A stretch of DNA of 64,000 bases from Gemmatimonadota bacterium (GTDB lineage Bacteria > Gemmatimonadota > Gemmatimonadetes > Gemmatimonadales > GWC2-71-9), in the NCBI GenBank assembly GCA_039656555.1, contig JBDHLU010000005.1, positions 4,242 to 68,241 of the forward strand, written 5' to 3'. The position numbers were made by a program, and so were the translations under genes. This document shows, one piece after another, positions 47,153 through 64,000 of the stretch. Under the pieces are notes generated by a model. It saw only the letters and a list, made by a program, of their open reading frames with translations. It ran no database searches and was not told the origin of the DNA. How positions within the stretch are numbered: position 1 is the first letter of the stretch; every line of letters starts with the position of its first letter.

Positions 47153-47545
47153 AGAAAACGGCAGGGAAGTGCTGAAACGGCAGCGCCGCGACGCGAAATG
47201 GCAGATCGCGAGTTCGAAAAGCCGAATTGGGAATTGCCAGACGTCAAATCCGAATTGCCAGACGTCAAATCGGAATTGCCAGACGCCAGATCGGAATTGC
47301 CAGACGCCAGATCGGAATTGCCAGACGCCAGATCGGAATTGCCGGACGCCAAATCGAAATTGCCAGACGTCGCATCGGAATTGCCAGACGGCAAATCGGA
47401 ATTGCCAGACGGCAAATCGGAATTGCCAGACGGCAAATCGGAATTGCCGGACGCCAAATCGGAATTGCCAGACGCCGCATCGGAATTGCCAGACGCCGGA
47501 TCGGAATTGCCGGACGCCGGATCGGAATTCCGATCGGGCGGATCG
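47153..47545. repeat. 21-bp tandem repeat array: 14 well-conserved units (47231-47524) flanked by degenerate units
   Basis: The consensus is GAATTGCCAGACGNNNNATCG. The variable tetranucleotides, in order, are TCAA x2, CCAG x3, CCAA, TCGC, GCAA x3, CCAA, CCGC, CCGG x2. Decayed copies with 21-bp phasing lie at 47153, 47174, 47195 and 47216, with a degenerate unit at 47525-47545. All six reading frames are largely open across the array. Confidence 0.95.
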
Positions 47546-47696
47546 AACGGGGCACGCATCGATCACGGGACCGCCCTCCCGATCATGACGGCGGTGTTCG
47601 CGGCGCCAAGCAGGCCCAACGCCGTCCAGTGGGCTCGTCAGCATGGTGTGCAGGCGATACCTTCGCATCGAGTCCCACGATCTCACGAGGCATCTT

Positions 47697-49228: not shown

Positions 49229-52063
49229 GTGTCCATGATCGAACAGTTGAACGCCGGGTTGGAGGGTCGCTACGTCGTCGAGCGCGAGCTTGGCGCCGGT
49301 GGTATGGCAACCGTCTATCTGGCCCAGGATCTCAAACACCGTCGGCAAGTGGCGCTGAAGGTATTGCGGGAGGATGTGGCGGCCACCCTGGGGGCCGATC
49401 GGTTCCTGCGCGAGATCGAGATCGCGGCGGGTCTCCGCCATCCACATATCCTGCCCCTGTACGATTCGGGTACGGTTGGGAACGCGTTCTTCTACGTGAT
49501 GCCCGTGGCCGAAGGCGAATCACTTCGAGAACGGATCGATCGCGAGAAGCAACTCCCCATTCCCGATGCGCTGCGGATCGGGAGGGAGGTGGCGGATGCC
49601 TTGGCCTACGCGCACAGTCACGGCGTCGTGCACCGCGACATCAAGCCCGAAAATATCCTGCTCGAGTCCGGTCACGCGGTCATCGCTGATTTCGGGATTG
49701 CCCGTGCCGTCGATACCCATGGCGGCAACGTGACGCTCACCGAAGCGGGCATGAGCATCGGCACGCCGACCTACATGAGTCCCGAGCAGGCGAGCGGCGA
49801 ACGTGACGTCGACGGCCGGAGCGACCTCTACAGCTTGGCGTGCGTGGTCCACGAGATGTTGACCGGGGAGCCGCCGTTCACGGGCCCCACGGTCGAAAGC
49901 ATCATCCGGCAACACATCACGGCCGACCCACCCACGGTCACGGTGCTGCGCTCGACCGTCTCCGAGAAGGTTGCGTCGTCGATCGTAACGGCGTTGGCCA
50001 AGATCCCGTCCGACCGGTTCAGCACGGCGGCGGAATTCGGGGCAACGCTGGAAACCAGCGATGTGCGGCCGCCGACGATGGCCGTGCCATCGGCTCGGAC
50101 GTCAATGCGGAGGCCGGTCGCTTTGATGGCGGCGGCACTCGTCGTGGTTGCTGCGACTGCGGCATGGTTTATCACTCGCGATGGAGGCGGTGTAGCCAAC
50201 GGTATCGTCGAGCGAGACTGGATCCTCGTGGCCGCGTTCGACGGGTCCGCCGAAGACCATGAACGCGGCATGGCGCGGGAGTTCGTACGGACGGCACTCG
50301 ACCAATCGTCCATCGTCGTCACGATCTCCGATCAGGACATGCGCCGTGGCTTGGAGATGAGTGGGCGGCCCGATACTACGCGCGTCGACGCCCAACTTGG
50401 CCGTGAACTCGCCGTCCGGGCCAGCGTCCGCGCGGTCGTGACGGGGCAGATCGACCGGATTGGAAACACGTATCCCATCGTATTGCGCGTGATCGGCGCT
50501 GACTCGGGTGACGTCATCGTTTCCGAACGAGCTATTGCGCAGTCCGCCGACGACCTCATCTCGACGGTAGACGATGCCGTGCGGGGCATCCGAGAACAAC
50601 TCGGTGAGCGGCGATCCGCGATTCGGGCCAACCGCCCGCTCCGCCAGGTGATGACGCCGTCGTTCGAGGCGTACGAGAAGTTCGTGGAAATGGAAGCCGA
50701 GATGCGGACGACGGGCCGCCAGGGTCGTGCGGTCAATCTGTTGCGCGAGGCTCTGGTAATCGATCCCGAGTTCGCTTCGGCGCGGCTCGCTATGTGGGCA
50801 CGATTCATCAACCGGGGTTGGCAGGATTCCGCCCGCGCGGCCATCGAAGATGCGTTGGCGATTCCCGGACGGCTCACGGAGCTCGAGCGGATGCGCGCAC
50901 GCGCATCGTTGGCCTTGGTCGAGTGGAACGTGCCACGTGCGGCCCAAGCGTATGAAGAGTTGCTTGCTCGGTATCCCATGACGGCAGGGGCGCTTACGAA
51001 CCTTGGTGTGGCGGTGGGGCAGCTGGGACGCACAGAGGAGGCGTTGGAGATTTACCGGCGGGCACCGGATCCCTTTGGTACCAACACGATGAATCTCTGG
51101 AACAAGAGTGAGGCCCTGATGACCCTGGGGCGGTTCCGAGAGTTGGACTCGCTCATCGAGGTGATGCCGGAACAGTGGCAGGAAGGGCGGACGTCGGCGG
51201 CGTTGATTGCGGAACGCCGGTTCGATGCGGCCGACAGCATGCGGGCACAGGGCCTACGTGAAGATCCGCCTCGGAACGCCCAGCAGCGCGGTTGGGTGCA
51301 GTACAACCAGGCGATGGCCGGCATCGTCCGTGGGAGAGTCGAGAAAGCCGGCGCCAGTTTACAGGAGCGTGCTGAATTTGTAAGCGAGCAAGGATGGGAC
51401 GTTCAGGGTCGCGGTTTCTTCGAAGAATCGAAATTGATCCATTCCCTGAGCGCCGGACGACCGATCCCACCCTCTATGTTCACTCCGCAGGACACGAGCG
51501 TCGATGCCCAGTTGCTCTTTGGCGTGAGCGCGGCACTGAACGGCAATGAACGAACCGCGCGCGACATACTCTCGGCGGTCCGAGCGCGCGACGAACGAGA
51601 TCTCGCCTGGTACGGTGGGGGGCCGCTCGTGTTGGAAGCCGCGATCGCCGCCGGTAATGAGGATTGGGAAGAGGTGACGAACCTCCTCGGCCCCGCTGGC
51701 CATTGGAACTGGCCGTACTCGACCTTCCGGGGCACCAATTGGGCCATCGTCTCATGGCTCCTGTTGGGCGAGGGGTACGAGCAAACCGGCCAACTAGACT
51801 CCGCGGCAGCGTACTTCGAATTGTTGGGCACTCCCGGTGAGTACGTACGGCGTGATGACATCCAGCGTGCGGGTCTTACCTATTCGTTTGCGCACTTTCG
51901 CCGAGGTCGGATTCTCACGGAGCTGGGCCGAACTGAGAAAGCCCGCGAGGCGTGGTTGACGTTTCTAGACGCCTTCACGGACCCTGATCTCGACTACGAG
52001 TGGATGGTGACCGAGGCGAATGAGTCGTTGGCGCGTTTGGCGGGAGAGACGGTCGGCAACTAG
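49229..52063 (+). CDS. Membrane Ser/Thr protein kinase with TPR-like extracytoplasmic domain (paralog of 43468..46416)
   Basis: 944 aa, GTG start. GAGGMATVYLA...VALK, HRDIKPEN, DFG, SPE. TM VALMAAALVVVAATAAWFI. Helical-repeat C-terminus. Confidence 0.85.
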   Translation: MSMIEQLNAGLEGRYVVERELGAGGMATVYLAQDLKHRRQVALKVLREDVAATLGADRFLREIEIAAGLRHPHILPLYDSGTVGNAFFYVMPVAEGESLRERIDREKQLPIPDALRIGREVADALAYAHSHGVVHRDIKPENILLESGHAVIADFGIARAVDTHGGNVTLTEAGMSIGTPTYMSPEQASGERDVDGRSDLYSLACVVHEMLTGEPPFTGPTVESIIRQHITADPPTVTVLRSTVSEKVASSIVTALAKIPSDRFSTAAEFGATLETSDVRPPTMAVPSARTSMRRPVALMAAALVVVAATAAWFITRDGGGVANGIVERDWILVAAFDGSAEDHERGMAREFVRTALDQSSIVVTISDQDMRRGLEMSGRPDTTRVDAQLGRELAVRASVRAVVTGQIDRIGNTYPIVLRVIGADSGDVIVSERAIAQSADDLISTVDDAVRGIREQLGERRSAIRANRPLRQVMTPSFEAYEKFVEMEAEMRTTGRQGRAVNLLREALVIDPEFASARLAMWARFINRGWQDSARAAIEDALAIPGRLTELERMRARASLALVEWNVPRAAQAYEELLARYPMTAGALTNLGVAVGQLGRTEEALEIYRRAPDPFGTNTMNLWNKSEALMTLGRFRELDSLIEVMPEQWQEGRTSAALIAERRFDAADSMRAQGLREDPPRNAQQRGWVQYNQAMAGIVRGRVEKAGASLQERAEFVSEQGWDVQGRGFFEESKLIHSLSAGRPIPPSMFTPQDTSVDAQLLFGVSAALNGNERTARDILSAVRARDERDLAWYGGGPLVLEAAIAAGNEDWEEVTNLLGPAGHWNWPYSTFRGTNWAIVSWLLLGEGYEQTGQLDSAAAYFELLGTPGEYVRRDDIQRAGLTYSFAHFRRGRILTELGRTEKAREAWLTFLDAFTDPDLDYEWMVTEANESLARLAGETVGN

Positions 52064-52066
52064 CGG

Positions 52067-52133
52067 GAGAGGGCGCAGGACAAAGGTCGCAGGGCGCAGG
52101 GTTACATCTCTTCGTCCTCCGTCCTTCGCCCTC
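52067..52133. terminator. Imperfect GC-rich hairpin between convergent kinase genes
   Basis: The left arm is GAGGGCGCAGGACAAAGGTCGCAG. The right arm, reverse-complemented, is GAGGGCGAAGGACGGAGGACGAAG (19/24 pairing). The left arm also holds the direct repeat GGGCGCAGG x2. Confidence 0.35.
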
Positions 52134-52136
52134 TAA

Positions 52137-54836
52137 TCAGTTTCCCACTCTTTCCTTCAACTCCTCGAACCAGTTCTCCACGATGATCACTTCGGTCGGG
52201 CTGGCGTCGCTCGCAAACTGGAGAAACACGAATCGTTGAGCATCCGACGCAACGTCATACTGATGGCGATTGCCGGCCGTGACGAATTGGTCGACCGAGA
52301 ACAACGTGTTCTGGTCGGTCCATTGGAAGATCGACCCACTGGCACGGTCGATCGTCACGACCACTAGTTCGTTTGCACCGTTCCGGTAAAACAGTTCATC
52401 GCCCTTGGGCGACCATTGTGGTGCCTCGCCACCGGCCGTCGACAGCTGCTGCATCCACTCGTCCACGTTGGGAAACGGTCGCACGTACACCTCGTTGTTC
52501 CCGGACATGTTCGACATGTAGGCCAACCACTGCCCGTCCGGCGACAGCACGGGCATGCGTTCGGATGCATCAGTCGTGAGCAACGCCACCGGGGCGCTGT
52601 CGGTTCTCGACCGAACGGCATAGACGTCGGAGGAGCTCGTCTCCACGCGATACACGATCCATTCACCGTCGTTGGAGTAATGAACCTCCCACACCGGCGG
52701 CAGGTCGTCGATGGCGGTCAGGAGACGCTCGGCTTGCGAACTGCCGTCAGCGCGCTTGAAATAGATGTCGTTGCTGATACCACGATCGGAAACGAAGGCA
52801 AGCGCACTGCCATCCGGGACCCATGACGAGCGGAAATTGACGGACCCCTCGTGCGTGAGGATCGTGCTCGGCCCGCGGTCCAGCCGCTTGACCCAGAGGT
52901 GAAGGACGTTGTCCTGCGCAATCGTGATCGCGAGGCGGTCACCGCTGGGCGACAGTTCCGGGTAGCTCATCGCGCCAGACCAGTCGGGATCGATCACCGT
53001 GGTCGATCCGTCCCGCGTTACCCACACGGGCTGGACGTTGGCGGCGTACCCGGTGGCATAGATCAGGGTACCGGTCGCCGACACTGAAAGGTCAGCCGCA
53101 CCGGCAAAGCGCCCGCCAAGCCCTTCGGCCAAGGCCCGTGGGTCTCCGGTAAGCTCGAGATTGTCCTGATCGAACGGGCGCGCCATGAGGGTCCCATCGA
53201 TCGTGACGTACACCAGGTGTCCGGAGGTCGCATACACCGCGTATGTGCCGCGTACCAAGTATCGGTGTTCTCCGGTCTCGAGGTCGACCACGGCGATATC
53301 GCTATCCGCGAGGTTGTTTCCGTGTAGCACCTGAAACAGCACCCCTTTTCCGTTCGGAAGAGCGGAAGGCCACAGGTGGTCGATTTCGCCTCGCGTGCTA
53401 TCGATGCGCGTCACGATGTGGAGCGGTCCTCCGCCCCCGGCGGCCACTCGTACGAGACCGGGCCCCACACGCCCCGCACCCTGTGCCACGGCGTAGAGGT
53501 GTTGGCCATCTGGCGACCACGAGACGCCTTGAATATCCAACCCCGAATCCGCCGCCTCGATCGGTGGGCCGCCGACCAGTGATACAACCTGCACCACTGT
53601 GCCTGAGATTGCGGACAAGAACGCCACGCGCGAACCGTCCGGCGAAGCCTTCGGCGAGAATCCGCCCTCCGTTCCCAACAAAGGGGTCCCCGCCAGTGAG
53701 TTGCGGCTCCGCACGTACAACCGACCCGGGCCACCCTCATCCCCCACGTAGATCAGGCGGTCCCCGTCCGCAGTCAGCGTGAATCGGGACCCTATGAGGT
53801 TCTGGTCGATGGGATCGAAGTCCGGCAGCGACACATTGTAGCGCGAGACCGGCTGTGGTGGCTCCGCACGCGTCCACCCAATGATGGTCGTGACCAACAG
53901 GACGATAGCCAACGCCGAGACAGCGGCAAAAGCCCGCACAGACACGCCGGGAGCGGAACGCCCATCCACCGAGGTGGGCCCCGAAATCGCCGGTATCGTA
54001 AACGTCGCGTCGTCGAGCGCCGAGGCGAACTTCGCCGCACTCGTGAAACGATCCGCCGGGCTCTTCGCCAAGGCACGATTCACCGCCGCGTCGACGTTCG
54101 GTGGCACCATGTCGCGGGTCTGCGTAATGGGAGACGGGCGCTCCGAGAGAATCTTCGCGACGATTGCCTGCACGGAGTTACCGATGTGCGGTGGTTCGCC
54201 CACCAGCATCTCGTACGTCATCGCTCCGAGCGAGTAGATGTCGCTCCGGGCATCGATCTCGCGGTCACCGGTCGCCTGTTCCGGAGACATGTAGTGCGGC
54301 GTACCCATCGACAGACCGGTTTCGGTGAGTCGCGTGCCGCCCGCCTGACTCACGGCCAACGCAATTCCGAAATCCGCCACGACCGCCTGCCCGTCCTGCA
54401 TCAACACGTTCTCGGGCTTGATGTCTCGATGGACGACGTTGTGTCGGTGCGCATAATCGAGCGCCGCCGCCACCGACTTGGCGATCTGTACCGTGTCTTC
54501 CACCGAGAGCTGCTTCTCGCGATCCATCTTGTCGCGCAGCGTGTCACCCTCGACCAGTGGCATCACGTAGAACAAGAACCCTTCGGCCTCACCCGAATCG
54601 TACAGCGGCAGGATGTTCGGGTGCTGCAGGTTGGCGGTGACCTTGATCTCTTGCAGGAACCGCTCGCCACCGAGGATCGCGGAGAGCTCGGGTTTCAGGA
54701 TCTTGATCGCGACCTTGCGGTCGTGTTTCAGGTCGTGCGCGAGATAGACGGTTGCCATGCCGCCTTCGCCAATGTGACGTTCGATCTTGTAGCGGTCCGC
54801 GAGTGCGGTGGAGAGTCGGGAGGTTATTTCGGTCAT
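52137..54836 (-). CDS. Ser/Thr protein kinase with TM segment and C-terminal PD40/TolB-like beta-propeller domain (K1)
   Basis: 899 aa. GEGGMATVYLAHDLKHDRKVAIK, HRDIKPEN, DFG, SPE. TM AFAAVSALAIVLLVTTIIGW. Repeated PD40-type blades (..SPDGSRVAF.., ..WSPDGQHLY.., ..SPSGDRLAI.., ..LSPDGQWLAY.., ..WSPKGDELFY..). Confidence 0.9.
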   Translation of the reverse strand: MTEITSRLSTALADRYKIERHIGEGGMATVYLAHDLKHDRKVAIKILKPELSAILGGERFLQEIKVTANLQHPNILPLYDSGEAEGFLFYVMPLVEGDTLRDKMDREKQLSVEDTVQIAKSVAAALDYAHRHNVVHRDIKPENVLMQDGQAVVADFGIALAVSQAGGTRLTETGLSMGTPHYMSPEQATGDREIDARSDIYSLGAMTYEMLVGEPPHIGNSVQAIVAKILSERPSPITQTRDMVPPNVDAAVNRALAKSPADRFTSAAKFASALDDATFTIPAISGPTSVDGRSAPGVSVRAFAAVSALAIVLLVTTIIGWTRAEPPQPVSRYNVSLPDFDPIDQNLIGSRFTLTADGDRLIYVGDEGGPGRLYVRSRNSLAGTPLLGTEGGFSPKASPDGSRVAFLSAISGTVVQVVSLVGGPPIEAADSGLDIQGVSWSPDGQHLYAVAQGAGRVGPGLVRVAAGGGGPLHIVTRIDSTRGEIDHLWPSALPNGKGVLFQVLHGNNLADSDIAVVDLETGEHRYLVRGTYAVYATSGHLVYVTIDGTLMARPFDQDNLELTGDPRALAEGLGGRFAGAADLSVSATGTLIYATGYAANVQPVWVTRDGSTTVIDPDWSGAMSYPELSPSGDRLAITIAQDNVLHLWVKRLDRGPSTILTHEGSVNFRSSWVPDGSALAFVSDRGISNDIYFKRADGSSQAERLLTAIDDLPPVWEVHYSNDGEWIVYRVETSSSDVYAVRSRTDSAPVALLTTDASERMPVLSPDGQWLAYMSNMSGNNEVYVRPFPNVDEWMQQLSTAGGEAPQWSPKGDELFYRNGANELVVVTIDRASGSIFQWTDQNTLFSVDQFVTAGNRHQYDVASDAQRFVFLQFASDASPTEVIIVENWFEELKERVGN

Positions 54837-54938
54837 AAAAAGCGATTTAAGATTACAGAATAGAGAGCACAGAATTTAGATTGCCCCACACCACACCCGT
54901 TCTTAGATCTGTATTCTGTGATCTGAATTCTAAAATCA
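54837..54938. repeat. AT-rich 102-bp conserved inter-kinase spacer (copy 1), imperfect palindrome of GATYACAGA-type words
   Basis: aaaaagcgatttaAGATTACAGAATagagagCACAGAATttagattgccccacaccacacccgttcttagatctgtATTCTGTGATCTgaattctaaaatca. There are 92/102 identities with 57618-57719. The arms ...AGATTACAGAAT... and ...ATTCTGTGATCT... are inverted. Confidence 0.85.
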
Positions 54939-57617
54939 TCAGTTCCCTATCCTCTCCCGCAACTCCGTAAACCAATTGTCCACCACCACGACCCGATTTC
55001 CGGTCGACGCAGCGCGAAACCGGTTCATCAAGAACCGCTGACCGTCTGGAGCGATGTCGTACTCGCGAGCGAAGGCTTCGAATGCGTACCCCTGAGTACC
55101 GAACAACGGGGACTGCACACCTGCATTGAACGTGGGGCCCGGAATGATGTCGACTTGGATCAACTGTGCGTTCGCGTTCCGGTAGAACAGACGGTCTCCT
55201 CCGTTTGACCACAGCGGTTCGGCGCCGCCGCCACTGGAGACTTGCCAGCGGGCCTGATCGGTCGGGAATGGCCTGACGTACACCTCTGCCGCTCCCGACT
55301 CGTTGGAGACATAGGCGAGCCACCGTCCATCGGGGGAAAGCGCGGCCGCAGATTCGTTGAACGGCCCGGCAACGACGCCGAGCTCGGTCGTATCGCCGAC
55401 CCGTCGGGCGAAGATATCGCGCCCTGTGGGCGGCCCGTTCAACTGGTAGATCAGCCACTCGCCGTCACGAGAATAAAACGCTTGGACCACCGAACGTTCG
55501 TGATCGAGCACGAGATACGGTGCGGCGCTCCCGTCGGCTCGGCGCGCGTATACGTCGCCGTTCTCGCCGCGATTGGACAGGAACAGAATCTCCTGCCCAT
55601 CCGGGCTCCACGTCGGTCGGAAATTGCGACTGCCCTCGAAAGTCATCTTGGTCGTCGGTCCGCGGTCCAGCTGCTTGATCCATATATGTGTCCCATTGTC
55701 AACAACCTCGAGCGCGAGACGGCTGCCGTCCGGCGAGAGACTCCCGGGCCCGAAATTGCCGGTCCAGGTCGTGTCGACTGCCACGCTGACGCCTTCGCGG
55801 GTGGTCCAACTGATTTGGTCCGGGTCCTCGTCGACGAGGCCGGCCTGGTACATCAACGTGCCCGAGGCCGAAATGGCGATGTCAGACGTTCCCAGGGCCT
55901 CGACGCTGATGCCTTCCAGCAACGGCGTCGGCGGGCCGGTGAGTTCCATTCTATCGATGTCGAAGGGGGCCGCGACGAGCGAACCATCACCGCGAACGAC
56001 GATCAAGTGACCGGTCGGAGACCATCGAACCATCGAGCCCTGCATCAGGATGCGTTGCTCTCCCGTTTCGAGATCGAGCACAGCGATCTCCGACGTCTCG
56101 GCGTTGTACAGCTCGAGCTGAACCGTGAATACAACGCCACGGCCACCAGGCAGCGCATCGGGGAACGTGTGGGCGGCTTCGCCGCGAGTGGTATCCCGGA
56201 ACGTCACCGTCTCGATAGGTCCGCCCGTCGCCGGCATGCGCGACAACCCATCCACGACGCCCTGCCCTCCAAGGCCGGCGACAAAGTACAAGTACCCATC
56301 GTCGGCCCACGTCCCTCCGCCGCGCACGATACCCGAGTCCACCAGGGTCACTGGCGGCTCCCCACTCAACGAGACGATGCGGAGTGCCCTGGGCCCGGTG
56401 ATGAACGCGACGCGATTGCCATCGGGCGAGAAGAAAGGCTGATGCGCGCCCTCCCCCCCCGCGATGGGCTGCGCTTCCAACCGGTTGCGTTCTCGCAACC
56501 ACAGTTGCACGCCATCGTCGTTAGCTCCGGTATACACGAAACGCTTGCCGTCTGGAGAGATGGCGATGTTGCTACCGAAGTTGGTGACTAAACCCGCCTC
56601 GAGTTCAGGAACGTCGAGTTCGTACCGGATGACGGGAGCGGCTGGAGCCGGACTCGAACGCGTGAGTGCCCATCCTGCGGTCGCCGTCATGATGATTGCA
56701 ATTGCCGGCCAAGCGAAGCGCACGATCCCGGTTGAAGGCGTTGGTTCGGCGCTTGGGACACCAACAGTACTCGGCACCGTAAACCCGACGTTCGTGAGCG
56801 CGTCGGCGAACGTGGCAGCCGTCGCAAACCGATCCGCGGGCATCTTGTTCAATGCCTTGATAATCGCCGCGTTGATATGCACCGGGACGGTATCGCGCGT
56901 CGCGGTGACTTGTGGAGCTTTTTCCGTGATCACCTTGGCGACGATCGCTTGGGCGGACGACCCTTGGTAGGGCGGTTCTCCCGCGAGCATTTCGTACAGC
57001 ATGGCACCGAGGGAATAGATGTCACTCCGGGAGTCCAACTCGCGGTCGCCCATGGCCTGTTCGGGCGACATGTAGTGCGGCGTCCCGATCGACAAGCCCG
57101 TTTCGGTGATGCGTTGCCCGCTCGCTTGGCTCACGGCGAGTGCGATCCCGAAGTCCGCGATCATGGCCTGGCCATCGTGCAGGAGCACGTTCTCGGGTTT
57201 GATGTCCCGATGGATCACCCCCTGGCGATGGGCGTAGTCGAGTGCCGAGGCGATGGACCGCGTGATCTCCACTGCATCTTCGATCGACAATTGCTTTTCG
57301 CGGTCGATCTTGTCCCGCAACGTTTCGCCCTCGATGTAGGGCATTACATAATAAAGAAACGAACCGGCGTCACCTGAGTCGTGGAGCGGCAAGATGTGTG
57401 GATGCTGCAGGTTCGCCGTGACTTTGATCTCTTGTAAGAAACGCTCGGCGCCGATGACGGCCGCGAGTTCCGGTCGCAACACCTTCAGCGCGACCTTCCG
57501 GTCGTGCTTCATATCGTGCGCGAGGTACACGGTCGCCATGCCGCCTTCGCCGATGTGACGTTCGATGCGGTAGCGGTCGGCGAGGGCGGTGGATAGTTGG
57601 GAGGTTATTTCGGTCAT
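54939..57617 (-). CDS. Ser/Thr protein kinase with PD40/TolB-like beta-propeller (K2)
   Basis: 892 aa with the same motif set and architecture as K1. TM WPAIAIIMTATAGWAL. Confidence 0.9.
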   Translation of the reverse strand: MTEITSQLSTALADRYRIERHIGEGGMATVYLAHDMKHDRKVALKVLRPELAAVIGAERFLQEIKVTANLQHPHILPLHDSGDAGSFLYYVMPYIEGETLRDKIDREKQLSIEDAVEITRSIASALDYAHRQGVIHRDIKPENVLLHDGQAMIADFGIALAVSQASGQRITETGLSIGTPHYMSPEQAMGDRELDSRSDIYSLGAMLYEMLAGEPPYQGSSAQAIVAKVITEKAPQVTATRDTVPVHINAAIIKALNKMPADRFATAATFADALTNVGFTVPSTVGVPSAEPTPSTGIVRFAWPAIAIIMTATAGWALTRSSPAPAAPVIRYELDVPELEAGLVTNFGSNIAISPDGKRFVYTGANDDGVQLWLRERNRLEAQPIAGGEGAHQPFFSPDGNRVAFITGPRALRIVSLSGEPPVTLVDSGIVRGGGTWADDGYLYFVAGLGGQGVVDGLSRMPATGGPIETVTFRDTTRGEAAHTFPDALPGGRGVVFTVQLELYNAETSEIAVLDLETGEQRILMQGSMVRWSPTGHLIVVRGDGSLVAAPFDIDRMELTGPPTPLLEGISVEALGTSDIAISASGTLMYQAGLVDEDPDQISWTTREGVSVAVDTTWTGNFGPGSLSPDGSRLALEVVDNGTHIWIKQLDRGPTTKMTFEGSRNFRPTWSPDGQEILFLSNRGENGDVYARRADGSAAPYLVLDHERSVVQAFYSRDGEWLIYQLNGPPTGRDIFARRVGDTTELGVVAGPFNESAAALSPDGRWLAYVSNESGAAEVYVRPFPTDQARWQVSSGGGAEPLWSNGGDRLFYRNANAQLIQVDIIPGPTFNAGVQSPLFGTQGYAFEAFAREYDIAPDGQRFLMNRFRAASTGNRVVVVDNWFTELRERIGN

Positions 57618-57719
57618 AAGAAGCGATTTAAGATTACAGAATAGAGATTACAGAATTTAGATTGCCCCACCCCACACCGATTCTTAGATCAGCATTCTGT
57701 GATCCAAATTCTAAAATCA
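57618..57719. repeat. AT-rich 102-bp conserved inter-kinase spacer (copy 2)
   Basis: aagaagcgatttaagattacagaatagagattacagaatttagattgccccaccccacaccgattcttagatcagcattctgtgatccaaattctaaaatca. About 90% identical to copy 1, with the same length and the same position relative to the flanking stop and start. Confidence 0.85.
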
Positions 57720-60434
57720 TCAGTTCCCCATCCTTCGTTTCAGCTCTTCCGCGAAATTCTCGACGACGATCAGCTGTGGTGCGCTGGTGCCACCGGGTGA
57801 TCCGACGAAGACGAAGCGCTGATCGTCCAGGTCGACGTCGTAGTGCCGGCCGTTGGATCCCAGAAAGTAGGAGGCCACCGAAAAGAGGGTGCGTCGTTCC
57901 CCGAACGTGATCGCGTTGCCGCTGCGCGACACGGCAACTGACACGAGATTGAGGTCGCCGTTGACGTAGAACAACTCATCGCCGCTGTGTGACCACAGCG
58001 GCATGCGTCCACCATCGGAAGAGACCTGCCACATCCCGTCGAGTGTATTGGGGAACGGGCGCACCGCTATCTCGTCGCGACCGGTCTTATTGCTCTCGAA
58101 CGCGATCCACCGCCCGTCCCGCGAGATTTCCGCCACCTTTTCGTCGAACGAGGTCACGACGAGTTCGACGACTGCCGTGTCGACGCCCGGGCGATACCCA
58201 TGGATATCGCGTCCGCCCGTCGTGCCACCGATCCCGCCGGCGCGCAGCACGATCCACTCGCCCCCGGGACCCCAGAACGCTTCGGTGATACGCGCCTCGA
58301 GGTCCAGCAACAACTCGGCCGATCCGATGCCATCGGCGCGCCGTTGATAGAGATCGTAGGAGGAACCCTGCCTCGTCGACAAGAACGTCACCGACCGACC
58401 GTCCGGCGTCCAACGCGGCCTGAAGTTGCGGTCGCCTTCGAACGTCAGGCGGGTAGCGGGTCCGTCAGGGAGGTCCTTGATCCAAATGTCGGCCGTCTGA
58501 TCCTGCACGCGGAGCGCCAGACGGGTGCCGTCGGGAGAGAGAGACAGTCCGCCATTACCGGTGAAGGAAAAAGCCCAGTTTGGATCGAGGACCTGGGCAC
58601 GACCGTCGCGATCTACCCAATAGGCAGTCGACGTTGCCTGCCCGGGTTCGCCCTGGACGTATGTGAGCGTCCCGTTTCTCGATAATTCCAAGTCGACGGA
58701 ACCGGCGTTGTCCACCATAATCCCCTCGAACAGGGAAACCGCCGGACCGGTCAATTCGAGCGCGTCGGTGTCGAATGGAGCGGCGAGCAGCGCGCCGTCG
58801 GCTCGGACGAAGACGATGTGTCCCGAAGGCGAGTACACGGCGTAGATACCCTGCAGCAACGGTTCATGCCGCCCCGTCCTGACATTCAGCACACCGATCT
58901 CCGCGGTACCGAGATCGAGGCCGTGCCGAATGGTGATCAGCACACCCTTTCCGTTCGGGAGTACATGCGGAAAGACGTGTCCGTCCTCACCGGCAGTCGT
59001 GTCGGGGACGGAGGCCGGCTGTGGGGTGCCTCCAGTTTCGGGTATTCGCAGAAGCGGACCAGTCTGATTGGCCACGTAGATGAACCCGTCAGGCCCCCAC
59101 GAGAGTCCCCATCGATTGAATCCGGAATCGGCAAGCGCGACGGGCGGCTCGCCGCCCAACGAAACGATCTTGAGCGTAGCGGGGTTGAGCGTGATGAACG
59201 CGATGCGTTCACCGTCGGGCGAGAACGTTGGTGTCGTCGCGCCTCCGGTTCCTGCGATGACCCGCGCGTCGAGTTGATCGCGCTCGCGCACGTAGATCTG
59301 GGACAGGTTCGGTCCAAGCCCGAGAAATGCCAGTCGCGAATCGTCCGGTGCGAGTGCAATGTTGCCGCCTAACCGCTGAACCAGGTCCACCGACTGATCC
59401 GGATCGGCAGGCATCATGCGGTACCGGGTGACCGGCTTACTGGACTCTGGTTGCATCCAACCGAGCACCGCCGCCACCGACGCGATTGTGGCGACGGCTG
59501 CGAACGCCTTCGTCATGCGGTTCCAAGTTGTGCCAGTCCCCGAAGTCCCCGGTGCCGAGATGCCCATGGCGGTTGCCGGCATCGTGAGCGAGGTGTTAGA
59601 TAGCGCCTCCGTAAACTGAGCTGCCGTGTTAAACCGATCCGCAGGCAGCTTCTCGAGCGCCATGTGAATTGTCGCGGCCACGTGCGGTGGTACCGTGTCC
59701 CGCGCCGCGGTGATCAATGGCGGTTTCTCAGTGATGACCTTCGCGACGATAGCTTGGGCTGTACTCCCCGTATACGGCGGATCTCCCGCCAACATTTCAT
59801 AGAGCATCGCGCCGAGGGAGTACACGTCCGTGCGAGCATCCAACTCACGGTCGCCCATGGCCTGCTCGGGCGACATGTAATTCGGCGTCCCGATCGACAA
59901 CCCGGTTTCGGTAATGCGACTGCCCCCGGCTTGGCTCACGGCAAGGGCGATCCCGAAATCGGCGATCATCGCTTGCCCGTCCTGCATCAACACGTTCTCA
60001 GGCTTGATGTCGCGATGGATCACTCCCTGCCGGTGCGCGTAGTCGAGTGCGCTACCCACGGCCTTCGCGATATCCAGCGCTTCACTGATGCCGAGTTGTT
60101 TTTCTCGATCGAGCTTGTCGCGGAGCGACTCGCCTTCGACGTACGGCATGACGTAGTAGAGCAGCATGCCGCTCGCATCCGAGACGGTTCCGCTGTCATG
60201 GAGCGGCAAAATGTGGGGGTGCTGCAGGTTGGCCGTGACCTTGATCTCGTTCAGGAAACGCTCGGCGCCAATCACCGCGGCCAGTTCCGGTCGCAACACT
60301 TTCAATGCGACCTTGCGGTCATGTTTGACGTCGTGGGCGAGGTACACGGTCGCCATGCCGCCTTCGCCGATGTGGCGCTCGATGCGATAGCGGTCGGCGA
60401 GGGCGGTCGAGAGTTGGGAGGTGATCTCGGGCAT
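57720..60434 (-). CDS. Ser/Thr protein kinase with PD40/TolB-like beta-propeller (K3)
   Basis: 904 aa from ATG 60434 (MPEITSQLSTALADRYRIERHIGEGG), by homology with the K1/K2 N-termini. The 12 extra upstream codons in the track ORF differ from K4 only by non-synonymous changes, which suggests a non-coding leader. Confidence 0.85.
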   Translation of the reverse strand: MPEITSQLSTALADRYRIERHIGEGGMATVYLAHDVKHDRKVALKVLRPELAAVIGAERFLNEIKVTANLQHPHILPLHDSGTVSDASGMLLYYVMPYVEGESLRDKLDREKQLGISEALDIAKAVGSALDYAHRQGVIHRDIKPENVLMQDGQAMIADFGIALAVSQAGGSRITETGLSIGTPNYMSPEQAMGDRELDARTDVYSLGAMLYEMLAGDPPYTGSTAQAIVAKVITEKPPLITAARDTVPPHVAATIHMALEKLPADRFNTAAQFTEALSNTSLTMPATAMGISAPGTSGTGTTWNRMTKAFAAVATIASVAAVLGWMQPESSKPVTRYRMMPADPDQSVDLVQRLGGNIALAPDDSRLAFLGLGPNLSQIYVRERDQLDARVIAGTGGATTPTFSPDGERIAFITLNPATLKIVSLGGEPPVALADSGFNRWGLSWGPDGFIYVANQTGPLLRIPETGGTPQPASVPDTTAGEDGHVFPHVLPNGKGVLITIRHGLDLGTAEIGVLNVRTGRHEPLLQGIYAVYSPSGHIVFVRADGALLAAPFDTDALELTGPAVSLFEGIMVDNAGSVDLELSRNGTLTYVQGEPGQATSTAYWVDRDGRAQVLDPNWAFSFTGNGGLSLSPDGTRLALRVQDQTADIWIKDLPDGPATRLTFEGDRNFRPRWTPDGRSVTFLSTRQGSSYDLYQRRADGIGSAELLLDLEARITEAFWGPGGEWIVLRAGGIGGTTGGRDIHGYRPGVDTAVVELVVTSFDEKVAEISRDGRWIAFESNKTGRDEIAVRPFPNTLDGMWQVSSDGGRMPLWSHSGDELFYVNGDLNLVSVAVSRSGNAITFGERRTLFSVASYFLGSNGRHYDVDLDDQRFVFVGSPGGTSAPQLIVVENFAEELKRRMGN

Positions 60435-60515
60435 CGGACTAAGATGGGGTTCGTAACGGGGTTTCGCCATCCACGGCTGAAGCCGCGGCTCGGCTAGAAG
60501 ACTGCCGCTAGCTTA

Positions 60516-60638
60516 CTCGTCGAGCGTTGGCGGCCGGGCGACGAGCGGCCCGAGACAGTTGACGGCGAGCTGCGCTGGGAATTGAGCGTAGGAGTGTCGG
60601 GAGCGTTGGACGTCGCGAAGCTTTTCAAGAATCTCTAG
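60516..60638 (+). pseudogene. 3' remnant of a Uma2-family endonuclease gene
   Basis: It translates as ..ERWRPGDERPETVDGELRWELSVGVSGALDVAKLFKNL*. This parallels the last ~40 codons of the intact Uma2 gene (..ERWCIGNERPEIVDGELRWELSVGVSGVVDVAALFEKL*, 63856-63975). No 5' part is present. Confidence 0.7.
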
Positions 60639-60690
60639 CTCCGGCCAGCAAATCTCAGGTTTGTAATCTGTAATCTAAGATCTCGAATCA

Positions 60691-63327
60691 TCATCGCCCC
60701 GTCGTCATCTCCCGTATGATTTCCGTCCAGTTCTGAATCCAGATCAAACCCCTCGCCCCCTGGCCACCCTCTTGGTCGATGATCAGAATATCTTCGCCGT
60801 TGGGATGGATGTCGTAGTTGGGCGCAAGATTGTCTAGGTCGGTAACCGTTCCTCGAGACACACGCGAGGCAATGCGGAACCCGGAGTCCACCGATACTGT
60901 GGAAGCGATGAGCGTATTCGAGCTGACGAAGTACAGCTCGGCGCCGTCGGGAGACCATCGCGGAGCCCTGCCGCCCTCGGTCGATACTTGGTAGTGGCCG
61001 CCCTCGCCGGTCGTCGCCACCACATAGATCTCGTTGCTTCCGGATCGATCGGAGGTGTAGGCCAACCAACGCCCGTCTGGAGAAATCTGCGCCTCCCATT
61101 CATCGAACTCGGACTCGAGAACCCATCGTGGCGTCGAGTCGCCCAACGTAAGGAACCCTATATCCACAGTGCCGTTGCGGTCCGCCACGATCGCCAGCGT
61201 CTGGCCGTCCGGGAACCACGACTGGGGGTAGGCTTCGTAGTCAGACACGAGCAGGCGCTCGGCCGTGCCGCTCCCGTCCGATGGCTTCCAATACAGTTGA
61301 CCGACCTCGTCATTTCGGTCGCTCGAGAAGACAACGCGACTGCCGTCCCGCGTCCACACCGGCGCACGATTGCGAGTGCCTTCCGCCGTGAGGTTGGGCA
61401 TCGTGCCCTGGTCGATATCGAAGATCCAAATGTCGACGCGGCTGCCGACGTCCGAGAAGACGAACGCGACGCGCCGGCCGTCTGGTGAAAAGGTGGGGTT
61501 TTCCAGATTGCCATCTTGCGGCAGCTCGAGGGTCGTTGATCCGTTGGGGCCCACAAGGGCCAAGACCTCGGCCCTACTGCCGACCCCGGGCTGATAGGCC
61601 AAACCGCCTTCGGCCGACAGGGCGAACTCTCCGAGGCTGGGCCCAGCCAATCGCAGCCCGTCGAGAATGGCCATTGCCTGACCCGTGGTGCGCTGGGCAC
61701 TGGGATCGAACGGTTGGGCCAGGAGCGAACCATCCGCGCCCGAGAACACCAGATAACCGGAGGCGTACCTCGCGTATGTGCCAAACCCAATCGTGTCGAT
61801 GCTACCACTCTCGAGATCCACGACGACGATCCGAGCCTCTGCAGGACTACTACCTGCCACTCGGGCCAGCGTTGCCACTCCCCCAGGGAGCGCCGATGGA
61901 TGGATCAAACGCATGTCCGCCGGGGTCGGCACCGGAGTCGCTACTCCGCCGCCGGCCGGCACGGTATGCAACGAGTTGTTGTCCGAGAAAATTATGACGT
62001 CGTTGTCACCCCAACTGGCGCCCTCCGCTCTAGCAATCTCGAATATAGGCACCGGTGGCCCACCGGTCATCGGGACCTTCCGAATGCGACCGTCGGAATA
62101 GAATCCCAACCAGCGTCCATCCGGCGAAAAGAACGGAATCGACGCGTCGTCGGTACCGGGGATCTCTTCGGCCTCCAGTTGCCCAAGTCGCCTTCGGTAC
62201 AGCGGCGAGCGACCTTCACCGCCTCCACCACCCACGAAGACCATCCACTCGCCGTCCGGTGAGAGCGCGACCGTTGGGCCGCAGCATCTGCTATAACCGA
62301 GGACACCTTCGGGTGCGGGAACCAGAAAACGCGTCAGCCGAATTTCTGGGGTGCTGGTGGTCATGCGGCCGCCGAGAAACACGACAGTCAATACTAATGC
62401 CGCTCCAAGGAGGAGTAGTGCCGTAGATTTTCTCGATCGCGTCGCGACCGGTATCGATTCCGCAGGCATCGTCGCAGTCGACGGAATCGTGAACGCCGTG
62501 TTCGTCAACGCGTCCGCAAATGTGGCCGCCGTACTGAACCGATCGGCCGGCATCTTGTTCAACGCTTTGATAATCGCGGCGTTGATGTGTCCGGGGACCG
62601 TGTCTCGCGCGGCCGTAACCGGTGGTGCCTTCTCGGTAATGACCTTGGCCACGATCGCCTGCGCCGAGCTGCCTTGATAGGGCGGCTCACCCGCGAGCAT
62701 CTCGTAGAGCATCGCGCCAAGAGAGTACACGTCGCTCCGCGCGTCGAGTTCACGGTCGCCCATCGCCTGTTCGGGCGACATGTAATGCGGCGTCCCGATC
62801 GACAAACCCGTTTCCGTCAGGCGTTGACCGCTCGCATGACTCACGGCGAGGGCTATCCCGAAATCCGCGACGAGCGCTTGGCCGTCGTGAATCAGGATGT
62901 TCTCGGGTTTGATGTCGCGATGGATCACGCCTTGCCGGTGCGCGTAGTCGAGCGCCGAGGCAATCGATCGCGTGATGTCGATCGCGTCCTCGATCGCGAG
63001 TTGCTTTTCACGATCGAGTTTGTCGCGCAGCGTATCACCCTCGATGTAGGGCATGACATAATAAAGGAAAGAGCCCGCGTCACCCGAATCGTGGAGCGGG
63101 AGGATATGCGGGTGCTGCAAGTTCGCCGTGACTCTGATCTCCTGCAGGAATCGCTCGGAGCCGATGACGGCCGCAAGCTCCGGTCGCAAGACTTTCAAAG
63201 CGACCTTACGGTCGTGTTTGAGGTCGTGGGCAAGGTACACGGTCGCCATGCCCCCCTCGCCGATGTGGGACTCGATCTTGTAGCGGTCGGACAGGGCGGT
63301 GGAGAGTTGGGAGGTTATTTCAGGCAT
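60691..63327 (-). CDS. Ser/Thr protein kinase with PD40/TolB-like beta-propeller (K4)
   Basis: 878 aa from ATG 63327 (MPEITSQLSTALSDRYKIESHIGEGG). The kinase domain is nearly identical to K2 by eye. TM ALLLLGAALVLTVVFLGG. PD40-type blades (..LSPDGEWMVF.., ..FSPDGRWLGF.., ..FSPDGRRVAF.., ..ISPDGRWLAY.., ..WSPDGAELYF..). Confidence 0.85.
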   Translation of the reverse strand: MPEITSQLSTALSDRYKIESHIGEGGMATVYLAHDLKHDRKVALKVLRPELAAVIGSERFLQEIRVTANLQHPHILPLHDSGDAGSFLYYVMPYIEGDTLRDKLDREKQLAIEDAIDITRSIASALDYAHRQGVIHRDIKPENILIHDGQALVADFGIALAVSHASGQRLTETGLSIGTPHYMSPEQAMGDRELDARSDVYSLGAMLYEMLAGEPPYQGSSAQAIVAKVITEKAPPVTAARDTVPGHINAAIIKALNKMPADRFSTAATFADALTNTAFTIPSTATMPAESIPVATRSRKSTALLLLGAALVLTVVFLGGRMTTSTPEIRLTRFLVPAPEGVLGYSRCCGPTVALSPDGEWMVFVGGGGGEGRSPLYRRRLGQLEAEEIPGTDDASIPFFSPDGRWLGFYSDGRIRKVPMTGGPPVPIFEIARAEGASWGDNDVIIFSDNNSLHTVPAGGGVATPVPTPADMRLIHPSALPGGVATLARVAGSSPAEARIVVVDLESGSIDTIGFGTYARYASGYLVFSGADGSLLAQPFDPSAQRTTGQAMAILDGLRLAGPSLGEFALSAEGGLAYQPGVGSRAEVLALVGPNGSTTLELPQDGNLENPTFSPDGRRVAFVFSDVGSRVDIWIFDIDQGTMPNLTAEGTRNRAPVWTRDGSRVVFSSDRNDEVGQLYWKPSDGSGTAERLLVSDYEAYPQSWFPDGQTLAIVADRNGTVDIGFLTLGDSTPRWVLESEFDEWEAQISPDGRWLAYTSDRSGSNEIYVVATTGEGGHYQVSTEGGRAPRWSPDGAELYFVSSNTLIASTVSVDSGFRIASRVSRGTVTDLDNLAPNYDIHPNGEDILIIDQEGGQGARGLIWIQNWTEIIREMTTGR

Positions 63328-63426
63328 CGGACTAAGATGGCGTTTGTAACGCGATTTCGCCATGTGGCTGCTCGGCCATGCAGGCATGCGTTGCGAACCT
63401 CGGCCGAGGAAGGTCAGATTGTGGGT

Positions 63427-63975
63427 ATGCCAGCACAGCAAGAGATCACCACAATTGAGGCACTACTCGCGTTGCCGGATGATGGCATGCGGCACGAGCT
63501 GCTGGACGGCGAGCACGTCGTGACGCCATCACCCCGTTTCGTGCACCAGCTCGTCTTGGGAGAAGTGTGGGAACACCTTCGTGATGCCGTCGGTGATCGG
63601 GATGACATCGATGTGCTCTCGAGTCCGGCCGATATCTATTTGGGTCCGCGTACGCTGGTGCAACCGGACCTGTTCATCGTGTCGGTCGACTCCGAGCGCC
63701 GGGCGAATATCGCGTGGAAAGACGTGTCAACCCCATTGCTGGCGGTCGAGATACTCTCGCCTTCGACGGCATCTCGAGATCGCGGGAAGAAACGCCGGAT
63801 CTATCTAGAGGCAGGGATCGAGGAATACTGGATCGTGGATATCGATGCGAGGCTCATCGAACGTTGGTGCATCGGGAACGAGCGGCCCGAGATCGTCGAT
63901 GGTGAGCTACGCTGGGAATTGAGCGTCGGAGTGTCTGGGGTGGTGGATGTGGCGGCGCTTTTCGAGAAACTTTAG
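63427..63975 (+). CDS. Uma2-family (DUF820) putative restriction-endonuclease-like protein
   Basis: 182 aa from ATG 63427. ..GMRHELLDGEHVVTPSP...QPDLFIV...PLLAVEILSPSTASRDRGKKRRIYLEAGIEEYWIVD.. carries the PD-(D/E)xK-like Uma2 signature. The upstream ~840 nt of the track ORF is antisense to K4 and was discarded. Confidence 0.8.
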   Translation: MPAQQEITTIEALLALPDDGMRHELLDGEHVVTPSPRFVHQLVLGEVWEHLRDAVGDRDDIDVLSSPADIYLGPRTLVQPDLFIVSVDSERRANIAWKDVSTPLLAVEILSPSTASRDRGKKRRIYLEAGIEEYWIVDIDARLIERWCIGNERPEIVDGELRWELSVGVSGVVDVAALFEKL

Positions 63976-64000
63976 GTCCCGCCCACAGTTCCTCGGTCAC

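Follow-up and report, generated by a model that had tools for sequence, protein, structure and literature searches.

Four neighbouring genes on the minus strand of the window (the whole stretch of DNA analysed, 64,000 nt) encoded receptor-type Ser/Thr kinases in the same orientation, as displayed by ORF calling. The tandem array and its gene lengths (899, 892, 904 and 878 aa) agreed with the first-pass annotation, to which the minus strand is an addition. The order of kinase, transmembrane segment (TM) and PD40 domain agreed as well, with Pkinase, a hydrophobic segment and PD40 repeats present in each of K1 to K4. Two further membrane kinases lay on the plus strand to one side of the array.

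52137..54836, minus strand: K1, 899 aa receptor-type Ser/Thr kinase (ORF, Pkinase and PD40, motifs, TM); kinase ~53997-54836, TM ~53877-53933, ectodomain ~52140-53840
54939..57617, minus strand: K2, 892 aa receptor-type Ser/Thr kinase (ORF, Pkinase and PD40, motifs); kinase ~56778-57617, weakly hydrophobic TM candidate ~56661-56717, ectodomain ~54942-56630
57720..60434, minus strand: K3, 904 aa receptor-type Ser/Thr kinase (ORF, Pkinase and PD40, motifs, TM); kinase ~59583-60434, TM ~59451-59507, ectodomain ~57723-59441
60691..63327, minus strand: K4, 878 aa receptor-type Ser/Thr kinase (ORF, Pkinase and PD40, motifs, TM); kinase ~62488-63327, TM ~62368-62424, ectodomain ~60694-62355
43468..46416, plus strand: T1, membrane Ser/Thr kinase whose ectodomain of ~650 aa is unclassified; kinase 52-55% identical to K1-K4
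49229..52063, plus strand: T2, membrane Ser/Thr kinase whose ectodomain carries TPR repeats; kinase 52-56% identical to K1-K4

The Pkinase domain spanned aa 16 to ~266 in K1-K4 (Pfam, E 1e-49 to 1e-53), and PF00069 scored 167-181 bits in K1-K4, T1 and T2 against a gathering score of 31.7. The G-loop, VAxK, HRDxKPxN, DFG and A/SPE motifs were intact in all six kinases, and the nearest PDB match was the kinase domain of Mycobacterium tuberculosis PknB (E 3e-60). Judged by sequence, K1-K4 are PknB-like, Hanks-type receptor Ser/Thr kinases, predicted to be catalytically competent. Each protein displayed one hydrophobic segment between kinase and sensor (aa ~297-328), which in K2 (best window aa 301-319, Kyte-Doolittle mean 1.42) fell below the TM threshold of 1.6. 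From this arrangement we infer a single-pass receptor topology, with the kinase cytoplasmic and the sensor extracytoplasmic. T1 and T2 had both been described as kinase-TPR genes, which held for T2; in T1, TPR repeats were undetected and the ectodomain had no similarity to that of T2. A domain scan of the 31 larger ORFs across the window found no FHA or PP2C domain, consistent with the earlier remark that no phosphatase, FHA protein or obvious substrate gene lies in the array, and no ligand or substrate partner for K1-K4 was encoded nearby among the scanned ORFs.

The ectodomains of K1-K4 measured ~560 aa each and carried PD40 repeats (PF07676, 68-120 bits against a Pfam cut-off of 20.9), and an ectodomain sequence search gave a TolB match at E 4e-15. 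The AF2 model of the K4 ectodomain, the one ectodomain modelled, was all-beta (pLDDT 94.1, pTM 0.87), and its best PDB matches in Foldseek were TolB propellers (prob 1.0, TMt 0.5-0.77; TMt 0.77 for 2ojh). The model also matched the two-propeller proteins Aip1, LRP6 E3E4 and tricorn (1k32), and homologues carried precomputed Pfam Tricorn_N and Tricorn_2nd matches. Because the ectodomain resembled TolB propellers and two-propeller proteins alike, it probably forms two TolB-like (PD40) beta-propellers, not one. The PD40/TolB-like fold proposed in the first-pass annotation was therefore retained on the strength of PD40, AF2 and Foldseek results, but its single propeller was less probable than two, as two-propeller proteins also matched.

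Spacers and flanks of the array harbored the following elements.

54837..54938, minus strand: AT-rich spacer element upstream of K1 (102 nt; 36% GC within a ~62% GC region)
57618..57719, minus strand: AT-rich spacer element upstream of K2 (102 nt), the same element as the K1 spacer
60439..60467, minus strand: conserved leader motif GCGAAAYCSCGTTRCRMACVCCATCTTAG upstream of K3
63332..63360, minus strand: leader motif GCGAAAYCSCGTTRCRMACVCCATCTTAG upstream of K4, from a motif search of the window
60516..60646, plus strand: Uma2 3'-end remnant in the K4-K3 spacer, 78-80% identical to 63853-63983
63427..63975, plus strand: intact Uma2-family (PD-(D/E)xK-like) gene, divergent from K4 (Pfam Uma2, E 1.2e-29)
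52068..52134, minus strand: GC-rich hairpin just downstream of K1 (MFE -40.1 kcal/mol, z -2.9)

The K1 and K2 spacers were identical at 92 of 102 nt, and their similarity began sharply at the stop codon and extended at ~87% over ~130 nt of coding sequence. The orthologous K3|K2 spacer of a related array (L083) was only ~60% identical to the K2 spacer, with conserved blocks kept, and the exact core of the AT-rich spacer was absent from other loci. The spacer displayed a weak stem-loop (z ~-2.0 vs shuffles). Neither an Rfam search of 51900-64000 (no match) nor scanning of the array for sigma-70 promoters and terminators (nothing above chance) returned a candidate; the hairpin, lying between the convergent K1 and T2, was the array's only strong terminator-like structure. 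The leader motif was found twice in the window (0 expected) and also adjoined the Uma2 gene in L083, where the orthologous array was likewise flanked by a Uma2 gene (837-1325). K3 and K4 could each be extended in frame at the N-terminus ('MAK.RY..HLSP'), but these extensions were dismissed as non-coding, and the in-frame upstream ATG of K3 at 60470 is probably unused, because the same leader was out of frame in L083. The Uma2 remnant is a footprint of array rearrangement.

Kinase domains were conserved among the four copies, while the parts beyond them diverged strongly. Amino-acid identity was 72-91% in the kinase (highest for K2-K4, 91%), 22-36% in the juxtamembrane/TM part and 31-45% in the ectodomain. 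This bore out the contrast between conserved kinases and divergent ectodomains noticed earlier, whose quoted peptides were also found; compared domain by domain, divergence was non-uniform along the length and similarity collapsed right after the kinase domain. Orthologues of K1 (A_12640, L082; kinase 0.89, ectodomain 0.63 identity), K2 (B_7256, L083; 0.91 and 0.83) and K3 (B_4447, L083; 0.88 and 0.79) were found in related arrays, together with K4 orthologues at 74-77% identity (P0002-P0004) and two genes with 0.70-0.71 ectodomain identity to K4 (A_10001 and B_10001). Ectodomains were thus 0.63-0.83 identical to their orthologue vs 0.31-0.45 to their paralogues.

As suggested by sequence searches, kinase arrays of this kind are common in Gemmatimonadota and belong to a very large known family. 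The protein search gave at least 8000 homologues at E<1e-30, a search of genome contigs gave more than 599 matches (the best 80 all from Gemmatimonadota), and co-oriented runs of 2-8 kinase genes occurred at 19 of the 32 loci that reached 15 kb or more. Literature searches turned up neither a description of the K1-K4 family of Gemmatimonadota nor a characterised subfamily member. Gemmatimonadota are abundant soil bacteria and, to our knowledge, almost none of their signalling has been studied experimentally; with thousands of homologues, often in 2-8-gene arrays, this family is apparently among their largest sensor families.

For all pairs of copies, synonymous sites were saturated, with pS reaching 0.58-0.65 across kinases and 0.66-0.71 across ectodomains, and each copy had a closer orthologue elsewhere, so that K1-K4 are ancient, diverged tandem paralogues. 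The first-pass annotation had seen a locally expanding family. Tandem, co-oriented genes, the drop in similarity immediately past the kinase domain and a paralogue dN/dS higher in the ectodomain (0.29-0.52) than in the kinase (0.05-0.14) would agree with such a recent expansion, in which propellers of fresh duplicates diversify under positive selection. This reading was largely refuted, and is very unlikely, given the synonymous saturation in every pair, ectodomains nearer to orthologues than to any paralogue, the grouping of the K4 ectodomain with L076_182 and many other genomes rather than with K1-K3, and an orthologue ectodomain dN/dS of ~0.08-0.20 (vs L082/L083, with dS likewise saturated). 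Because of this low orthologue ratio, selection for propeller diversification was not indicated, and the ectodomains are themselves under constraint. The asymmetry between kinase and ectodomain mainly reflects stronger purifying selection on the kinase module, as judged from kinase conservation, which was about equal across genomes and inside the array (0.72-0.91): orthologues reached 0.88-0.91 and best matches in unrelated loci 0.72-0.84. Collapsed or duplicated repeats in the assembly, named beforehand as a possible refutation, have a negligible chance of explaining the four copies. The source is a metagenome, but nothing further favoured an artefact; the copies differed at 19-30% of nucleotides in the kinase and roughly half in the ectodomain (DNA identity only 70-81% and 46-53%), orthologous arrays were present in other assemblies, and an independent 6.3-kb JGI contig carried K2, K1 and both spacers, with K2 and K1 exact.

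On top of ancient copies and purifying selection, kinase modules have probably been exchanged occasionally between tandem paralogues. Phylogenies built separately for the kinase and propeller halves, a check proposed with the first-pass annotation, were incongruent for K2 and K4 (NJ trees on p-type distances). The kinase tree placed K2 and K4 as sisters (99.7% bootstrap), while the ectodomain tree joined K4 with L076_182 (100%) and left K2 apart, the K4 ectodomain belonging to a different old subfamily from that of K2. Quartet informative sites were distributed 35:15:12 in the kinase vs 22:415:29 beyond it (Fisher p 1e-26), with the mosaic switch at aa ~240-285; by genome, part of this signal stemmed from a separate conversion in genome B. 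An old exchange or gene conversion thus probably paired the K4 kinase module (62488..63327, minus strand) with that of K2 (56778-57617); the event is undatable and not firmly placed in the lineage of the window because dS was saturated even against the nearest orthologues.

Related arrays displayed the same mosaic structure. B_7256 and B_10001 were 0.96 identical in the kinase and just 0.31 in the ectodomain, A_15343 joined a K3-type kinase (0.89) to a 0.43 ectodomain, and a pair in L009 had kinase DNA 100% identical over aa 151-270 next to ectodomains 34% identical. Five further pairs in relatives had breakpoints at aa ~240-300, and converted tracts of near-identical DNA were found in the L009, L010, L025, L026 and L015 pairs. 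The signature of recent kinase-module conversion in these sequences is clear and unmistakable, although the related loci are MAG contigs, in which a tract of 100% identity might in principle stem from chimeric assembly. At matched ectodomain divergence, kinase identity was 0.81 within a locus vs 0.72 between loci (MWU p 7e-16).

Inside K1-K4, signs of conversion in the coding sequence were scarce. In the coding alignment of the four genes, a GENECONV-like run test of concordant polymorphic sites detected no long tracts (best uncorrected p 0.025, for the pair of K1 and K4; at least 0.087 for the remaining five pairs), synonymous divergence was not reduced, and near-identical DNA was confined to the K1/K2 spacer and 5' coding sequence. 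Two candidate signs were rejected. Identical codons were more frequent than codon usage predicts (0.46-0.54 vs 0.40), but this was not evidence of conversion, because the same-codon fraction among copies (0.46-0.55) equalled the cross-genome background of 0.55. Synonymous identity raised in the first 30 codons was equally strong between genomes (0.72) and within (0.70), which indicates constraint. The homogenisation by gene conversion put forward in the first-pass annotation accordingly survived as an old, episodic exchange (K2/K4 incongruence, spacer tract, arrays of relatives), and not as an ongoing process.

The weak run test, a K2-K4 synonymous signal no higher than in other pairs, and kinases conserved family-wide (in other genomes too, as given above) would all be expected if purifying selection acted alone, with the K2/K4 kinase likeness arising from strong or convergent constraint, such as a shared partner, and without recombination. 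This is unlikely: the kinase tree joins what the ectodomain tree parts, K2- and K4-type kinase modules are not sorted by orthology while ectodomains overwhelmingly are, and relatives repeat the pattern with identical DNA. Recombination has also left footprints in the form of a Uma2 remnant, a spacer present in two copies, and 5' pieces of kinase genes in L082/L083. A role of the array in anti-phage defence or conflict, combining PD-T4-6-like or BREX/MADS-like kinases, variable sensors and a Uma2 nuclease-fold neighbour, is extremely improbable. PADLOC PD-T4-6 models did match the kinase domains (E 1e-93 to 1e-95; mad6 1e-70), Uma2 matched the PADLOC candidate PDC-S03 (1e-26), and NCBIfam MAD6 and PglW matched partially. 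These matches were, however, limited to the generic kinase domain and equally strong for T1 and T2, the MAD6/PglW scores stayed under every curated NCBIfam cut-off, and no methyltransferase, BREX or MADS partners were found in the scanned window ORFs; identity as a PD-T4-6, MADS6 or PglW defence kinase was rejected on these grounds. The family is moreover chromosomal, phylum-wide and orthologously conserved, and TolB-like sensors beyond the TM would be unfit for sensing phage in the cell.

Taken together, K1-K4 are likely to be old tandem receptor kinases with probable double propellers, whose asymmetry stems mainly from purifying selection, complemented by occasional kinase exchange. In such receptors, each propeller pair may recognise its own ligand from the envelope or periplasm, probably a peptide or protein; on binding, dimerisation of the kinases and autophosphorylation of their activation loops would change, and the signal would then reach cytoplasmic substrates encoded elsewhere. 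Homologous recombination or gene conversion probably swaps kinase modules, with a 3' boundary at the kinase-domain end. The K2/K4 pair is probably an old product of this exchange, its assignment to a lineage not being firm, and the 102-nt spacer together with the initial ~130 nt of the K1 and K2 genes probably represents a younger, short conversion tract.

It is possible, but tentative, that tandem arrays form a many-sensor repertoire with one output, in which conversion keeps kinases interchangeable and shuffles divergent double-propeller sensors. Interchangeable kinase modules would then share substrates, a phosphatase or heterodimer partners, conversion would recur with its boundary fixed in the juxtamembrane segment, and the nucleotide-conserved first ~100 nt of each gene, like the conserved leaders or spacers, could act as recombination or regulatory anchors. 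We know of no description of a bacterial many-sensor, one-output kinase repertoire of this sort; if true, it would be a bacterial counterpart of plant receptor-kinase clusters. Output and input halves, kinase and propeller respectively, have had separate evolutionary histories, and the located exchange boundary could guide the design of chimeric receptors and studies of whether paralogues have downstream partners in common.

The analysis reveals no new kind of system, the sole unusual feature of K1-K4 being that kinase halves were occasionally copied between neighbours. PknD of M. tuberculosis is a receptor Ser/Thr kinase whose extracellular sensor is an NHL beta-propeller of six blades (Good et al. 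2004, as cited in PMC2877116). K1-K4 share with it the order of Hanks kinase, single TM and extracytoplasmic beta-propeller, and presumed ligand-controlled kinase activation, but their sensor is of TolB/PD40 type and resembles two-propeller proteins, whereas PknD has a single NHL propeller. They also come from another phylum, occur in tandem multi-copy arrays, and match the PknD profile (NF009651) in the kinase domain only (158-179 bits, cut-off 839). PD40 repeats count among the most frequent partner domains of bacterial Ser/Thr kinases (Tyagi et al. 2010, PMC2877116), in a survey that describes neither tandem arrays in Gemmatimonadota nor kinase modules exchanged between paralogues. PknB/Stk1 was the closest solved and curated kinase domain, with all catalytic motifs in common (NF033483, 297-318 bits over the kinase part, below the 450-bit cut-off), but K1-K4 lack PASTA domains (Pfam) and their ectodomain fold differs.

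TolB shares PD40 repeats and the propeller fold with the K1-K4 ectodomain (TIGR02800, 74-119 bits over part of one propeller, cut-off 343), but K1-K4 lack the TolB N-terminal domain, their propellers are fused to a kinase, and the window ORF scan found no tol-pal genes nearby. Likeness to tricorn, a 6+7-blade tandem, comes from the 1k32 match and the Tricorn_N/Tricorn_2nd domains of homologues; the protease domain is absent in K1-K4. Plant RLK/NLR clusters and bacterial multigene families undergo concerted evolution by gene conversion. Like the plant clusters, the kinase arrays display one homogenised module, divergent recognition modules and breakpoints at module boundaries; unlike them, the Gemmatimonadota case is bacterial, chromosomal and phylum-specific, with episodic conversion and a similarity mostly due to purifying selection.

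The four tandem genes K1 to K4 encode Ser/Thr kinases with PD40 ectodomains:

K1: 52137-54836, minus strand, 899 aa
K2: 54939-57617, minus strand, 892 aa
K3: 57720-60434, minus strand, 904 aa
K4: 60691-63327, minus strand, 878 aa

Open reading frames, Pfam matches and hydrophobic segments agreed with the first-pass annotation of four co-oriented genes with the layout kinase, single transmembrane (TM) segment, PD40. In 4/4 proteins, Pfam detected PD40 repeats and, at aa 16 to ~266, a kinase domain (E 1e-49 to 1e-53), and each harbored intact G-loop, VAxK, HRDxKPxN, DFG and SPE motifs and a single hydrophobic segment at ~aa 300-328, weak in K2 (KD mean 1.42). As displayed by pairwise amino-acid identities from a MAFFT alignment, divergence was not uniform: 72-91% identity was obtained in the kinase module, 22-36% in the juxtamembrane/TM part and 31-45% in the ectodomain (K4 being the outlier, 31-34%). 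The kinases were thus alike as first described, K2 and K4 the most (91%), and the sequences past the TM segment diverged. Assembly duplication was excluded, since the copies differed at 19-30% of kinase nucleotides and at about half of the ectodomain nucleotides, and since K2, K1 and both spacers were reproduced on an independent 6.3-kb contig.

The asymmetry was mainly caused by purifying selection, as the kinase identity of cross-genome orthologues (0.88-0.91) and of best matches in unrelated loci (0.72-0.84 to K1-K4) matched that within the array. The orthologues came from two closer relatives found by a K4 search, loci L082 (A; GCA_947259405.1) and L083 (B; ENA).

Orthologues of K1 to K4 in A and B (fraction of identity)
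K1: A_12640, kinase 0.89, ectodomain 0.63
K2: B_7256, kinase 0.91, ectodomain 0.83
K3: B_4447, kinase 0.88, ectodomain 0.79
K4: A_10001 and B_10001, kinase 0.90-0.91, ectodomain 0.70-0.71

Each window gene having an orthologue in A or B, the duplications behind K1 to K4 are older than the split of these genomes. The proposed locally expanding family with diversifying propellers, formed by recent expansion and positive selection, was contradicted on this ground and on others. pS was high for every pair (0.58-0.65 in kinases, 0.66-0.71 in ectodomains; Nei-Gojobori), and the same codon was used at 0.46-0.55 of identical residues, equal to the unrelated-genome background (0.55). Kinase dN/dS was 0.05-0.14 among K1-K4 pairs, and orthologue ectodomain dN/dS was only ~0.08-0.20, which argues for purifying selection on the ectodomains. 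The two halves of the proteins, in addition, have different genealogies.

These genealogies were obtained from separate NJ trees of kinases and ectodomains (30 sequences, 300 bootstraps), which were incongruent: K2 and K4 were sisters in the kinase tree (99.7%), while in the ectodomain tree K4 paired with L076_182, from another locus (100%), and K1 to K3 fell into another subfamily. Informative nucleotide sites in the quartet of K2, K4, B_7256 and B_10001 (by-genome : by-orthology : cross) numbered 35:15:12 in kinase columns 1-240 versus 22:415:29 from column 281 on (Fisher p 1e-26). The genealogy switched at ~aa 240-285, with the first orthology-type residues (NVGF vs NTAF) at columns 282-283. 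A second conversion, separate and younger, contributed part of the by-genome signal; it took place in genome B, whose B_7256 and B_10001 kinases were 0.96 identical. K2-K4 kinase dN (0.073) was taken as not above orthologue divergence (0.057-0.068), and the ectodomains of this pair were 4-8 times more diverged than those of orthologues. The K2/K4 event in the window is old and cannot be dated, since even orthologue dS was saturated. A_15343, in which a non-K3 ectodomain (0.43) is joined to a K3-type kinase (0.89), is another module exchange.

The idea that kinases were homogenised by conversion therefore stood in part. No long conversion tracts emerged among K1 to K4 when concordant polymorphic sites were submitted to a run test (best uncorrected p 0.025, K1/K4 pair; remaining five pairs at least 0.087), and purifying selection was the main source of asymmetry. 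However, constraint alone was insufficient to explain the K2/K4 kinase likeness, leaving unexplained both the segment-specific incongruence and the identical tracts in relatives. At matched ectodomain divergence, kinase identity across the family had a median of 0.81 within loci versus 0.72 between loci (MWU p 7e-16). At locus L009, two paralogues with ectodomains 34% identical were 100% identical in the DNA for aa 151-270 of the kinase; this identity broke off sharply at ~aa 270, and five more pairs (L010, L026, L025, L036, L015) displayed kinase DNA identities of 84-98% and breaks at aa ~240-300. Concerted evolution of the kinase half is old in the window and recent in relatives, and this module-level process with its consistent boundary is the feature of some interest in K1 to K4.

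The AT-rich 102-nt spacers (36% GC, minus strand) upstream of K1 (54837-54938) and K2 (57618-57719) were identical at 92/102 positions. Similarity set in precisely at the stop codon before each spacer and extended ~130 nt into the coding sequence at ~87%; of the 30-nt windows in the 3' ends before the spacers, most were only ~37-55% identical. In B the orthologous spacer (L083 7162-7255) reached only ~60% identity, with conserved blocks, and this closer likeness of paralogous spacers points to a functional element that was duplicated, or converted over a short tract, more recently. The spacer, with recurrent AGAAT/ATTCTGT/AATCT motifs and neither an Rfam match nor a sigma-70-like promoter, may be a regulatory element. 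A 29-nt leader motif, GCGAAAYCSCGTTRCRMACVCCATCTTAG, preceded the K3 and K4 starts by 3-4 nt (60439-60467 and 63332-63360, minus strand) and recurred at L083 1543-1571, adjoining a Uma2 gene; being out of frame there, it was rejected as coding sequence and is non-coding. The K4-K3 spacer also held a ~130-nt remnant of a Uma2 gene 3' end, which shared 78-80% identity with the intact Uma2 gene that lies upstream of K4.

Within the first ~90-130 nt of K1 to K4 and their L082/L083 orthologues, the first 30 codons stood out by unusually conserved synonymous positions. The same codon was kept at 0.70-0.72 of identical residues there versus 0.52-0.53 in codons 61-280, within and between genomes, which suggests nucleotide-level constraint at the 5' end of the kinase genes. 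Pseudogene fragments of kinase 5' ends (30-105 nt) between genes (L083 ~1575-1680 and 12647-12750; L082 ~9860-9890) would fit deletions or unequal crossing-over in this conserved segment. Gene order was K4-K3-K2-K1 in the window, x-K3-K2-K4 in B and K4-K1-K3-like in A. A TTHB210-like gene followed the array at L082 18194-18967 and L083 12785-13555, whereas in the window none lies downstream of K1.

Further genes of the neighborhood were:

T1: 43468-46416, plus strand, membrane kinase with a ~650-aa ectodomain
M28 peptidase gene: 47643-49160
T2: 49229-52063, plus strand, membrane kinase with TPR repeats

Both T1 and T2, first described as kinase-TPR genes, were membrane kinases, with TPR repeats detectable in T2 only. 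T1 had no Pfam TPR match, and its ectodomain, without similarity to that of T2, had a single weak match (NCBIfam 'peptide modification system cyclase', aa 478-570). A scan of 31 larger ORFs of the window gave neither an FHA nor a PP2C domain, in line with the first-pass annotation, which had no FHA or phosphatase gene in the array. A reading of the array as a defence system draws only on generic kinase-domain hits: K1 to K4 matched defence models through that domain, below curated cut-offs, and T1 and T2 did so equally strongly. Between T1 and the peptidase gene lay a 21-nt tandem repeat, GGAATTGCCAGACGCCAAATC (14.3 copies, 92% matches, 47230-47529; wider 47162-47587), and 35-nt and 46-nt repeats directly followed the T1 stop (46435-46561). 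Two ~810-aa ADOP-family duplicated permeases (34378-36816 and 38331-40748, plus strand; the first with TIGR03434 at 821 bits) and a separate MacB/HlyD/OEP efflux set (17924-22744) were also encoded. Two minus-strand ORFs (40997-43246, 749 aa; 36898-38283, 461 aa) had no match in Pfam, NCBIfam or PADLOC.

K1 to K4 are ordinary representatives of a very large Gemmatimonadota family, as yet uncharacterised, whose receptor Ser/Thr kinases carry double-propeller sensors. At least 8000 proteins matched at E<1e-30, and a scan in which each species was represented by one genome yielded more than 599 related stretches, the best 80 all from Gemmatimonadota MAGs. In 19/32 fetched loci (each at least 15 kb), 2-8 full-length kinase genes followed one another in the same orientation, so the tandem array is typical of the lineage. 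Modelled with AlphaFold2 from a 99-row alignment, the K4 ectodomain (aa 325-878) came out as all-beta, with high confidence (pLDDT 94.1, pTM 0.87). Foldseek against the PDB matched the model to TolB propellers (2hqs, 1c5k; 2ojh at TMt 0.77) and to proteins in which two propellers follow one another (Aip1 1nr0, LRP6 E3E4, tricorn 1k32). With the sequence match to TolB (E 4e-15), this makes a tandem pair of TolB-like propellers most likely. No curated full-length NCBIfam family reached cut-off with K1 to K4; the closest NCBIfam model to the kinase module was PknB/Stk1 and the closest solved structure the M. tuberculosis PknB kinase domain (E 3e-60). By analogy with receptor Hanks kinases, of which PknD is an example (PMC2877116), a periplasmic ligand would control activation of the K1 to K4 kinases.
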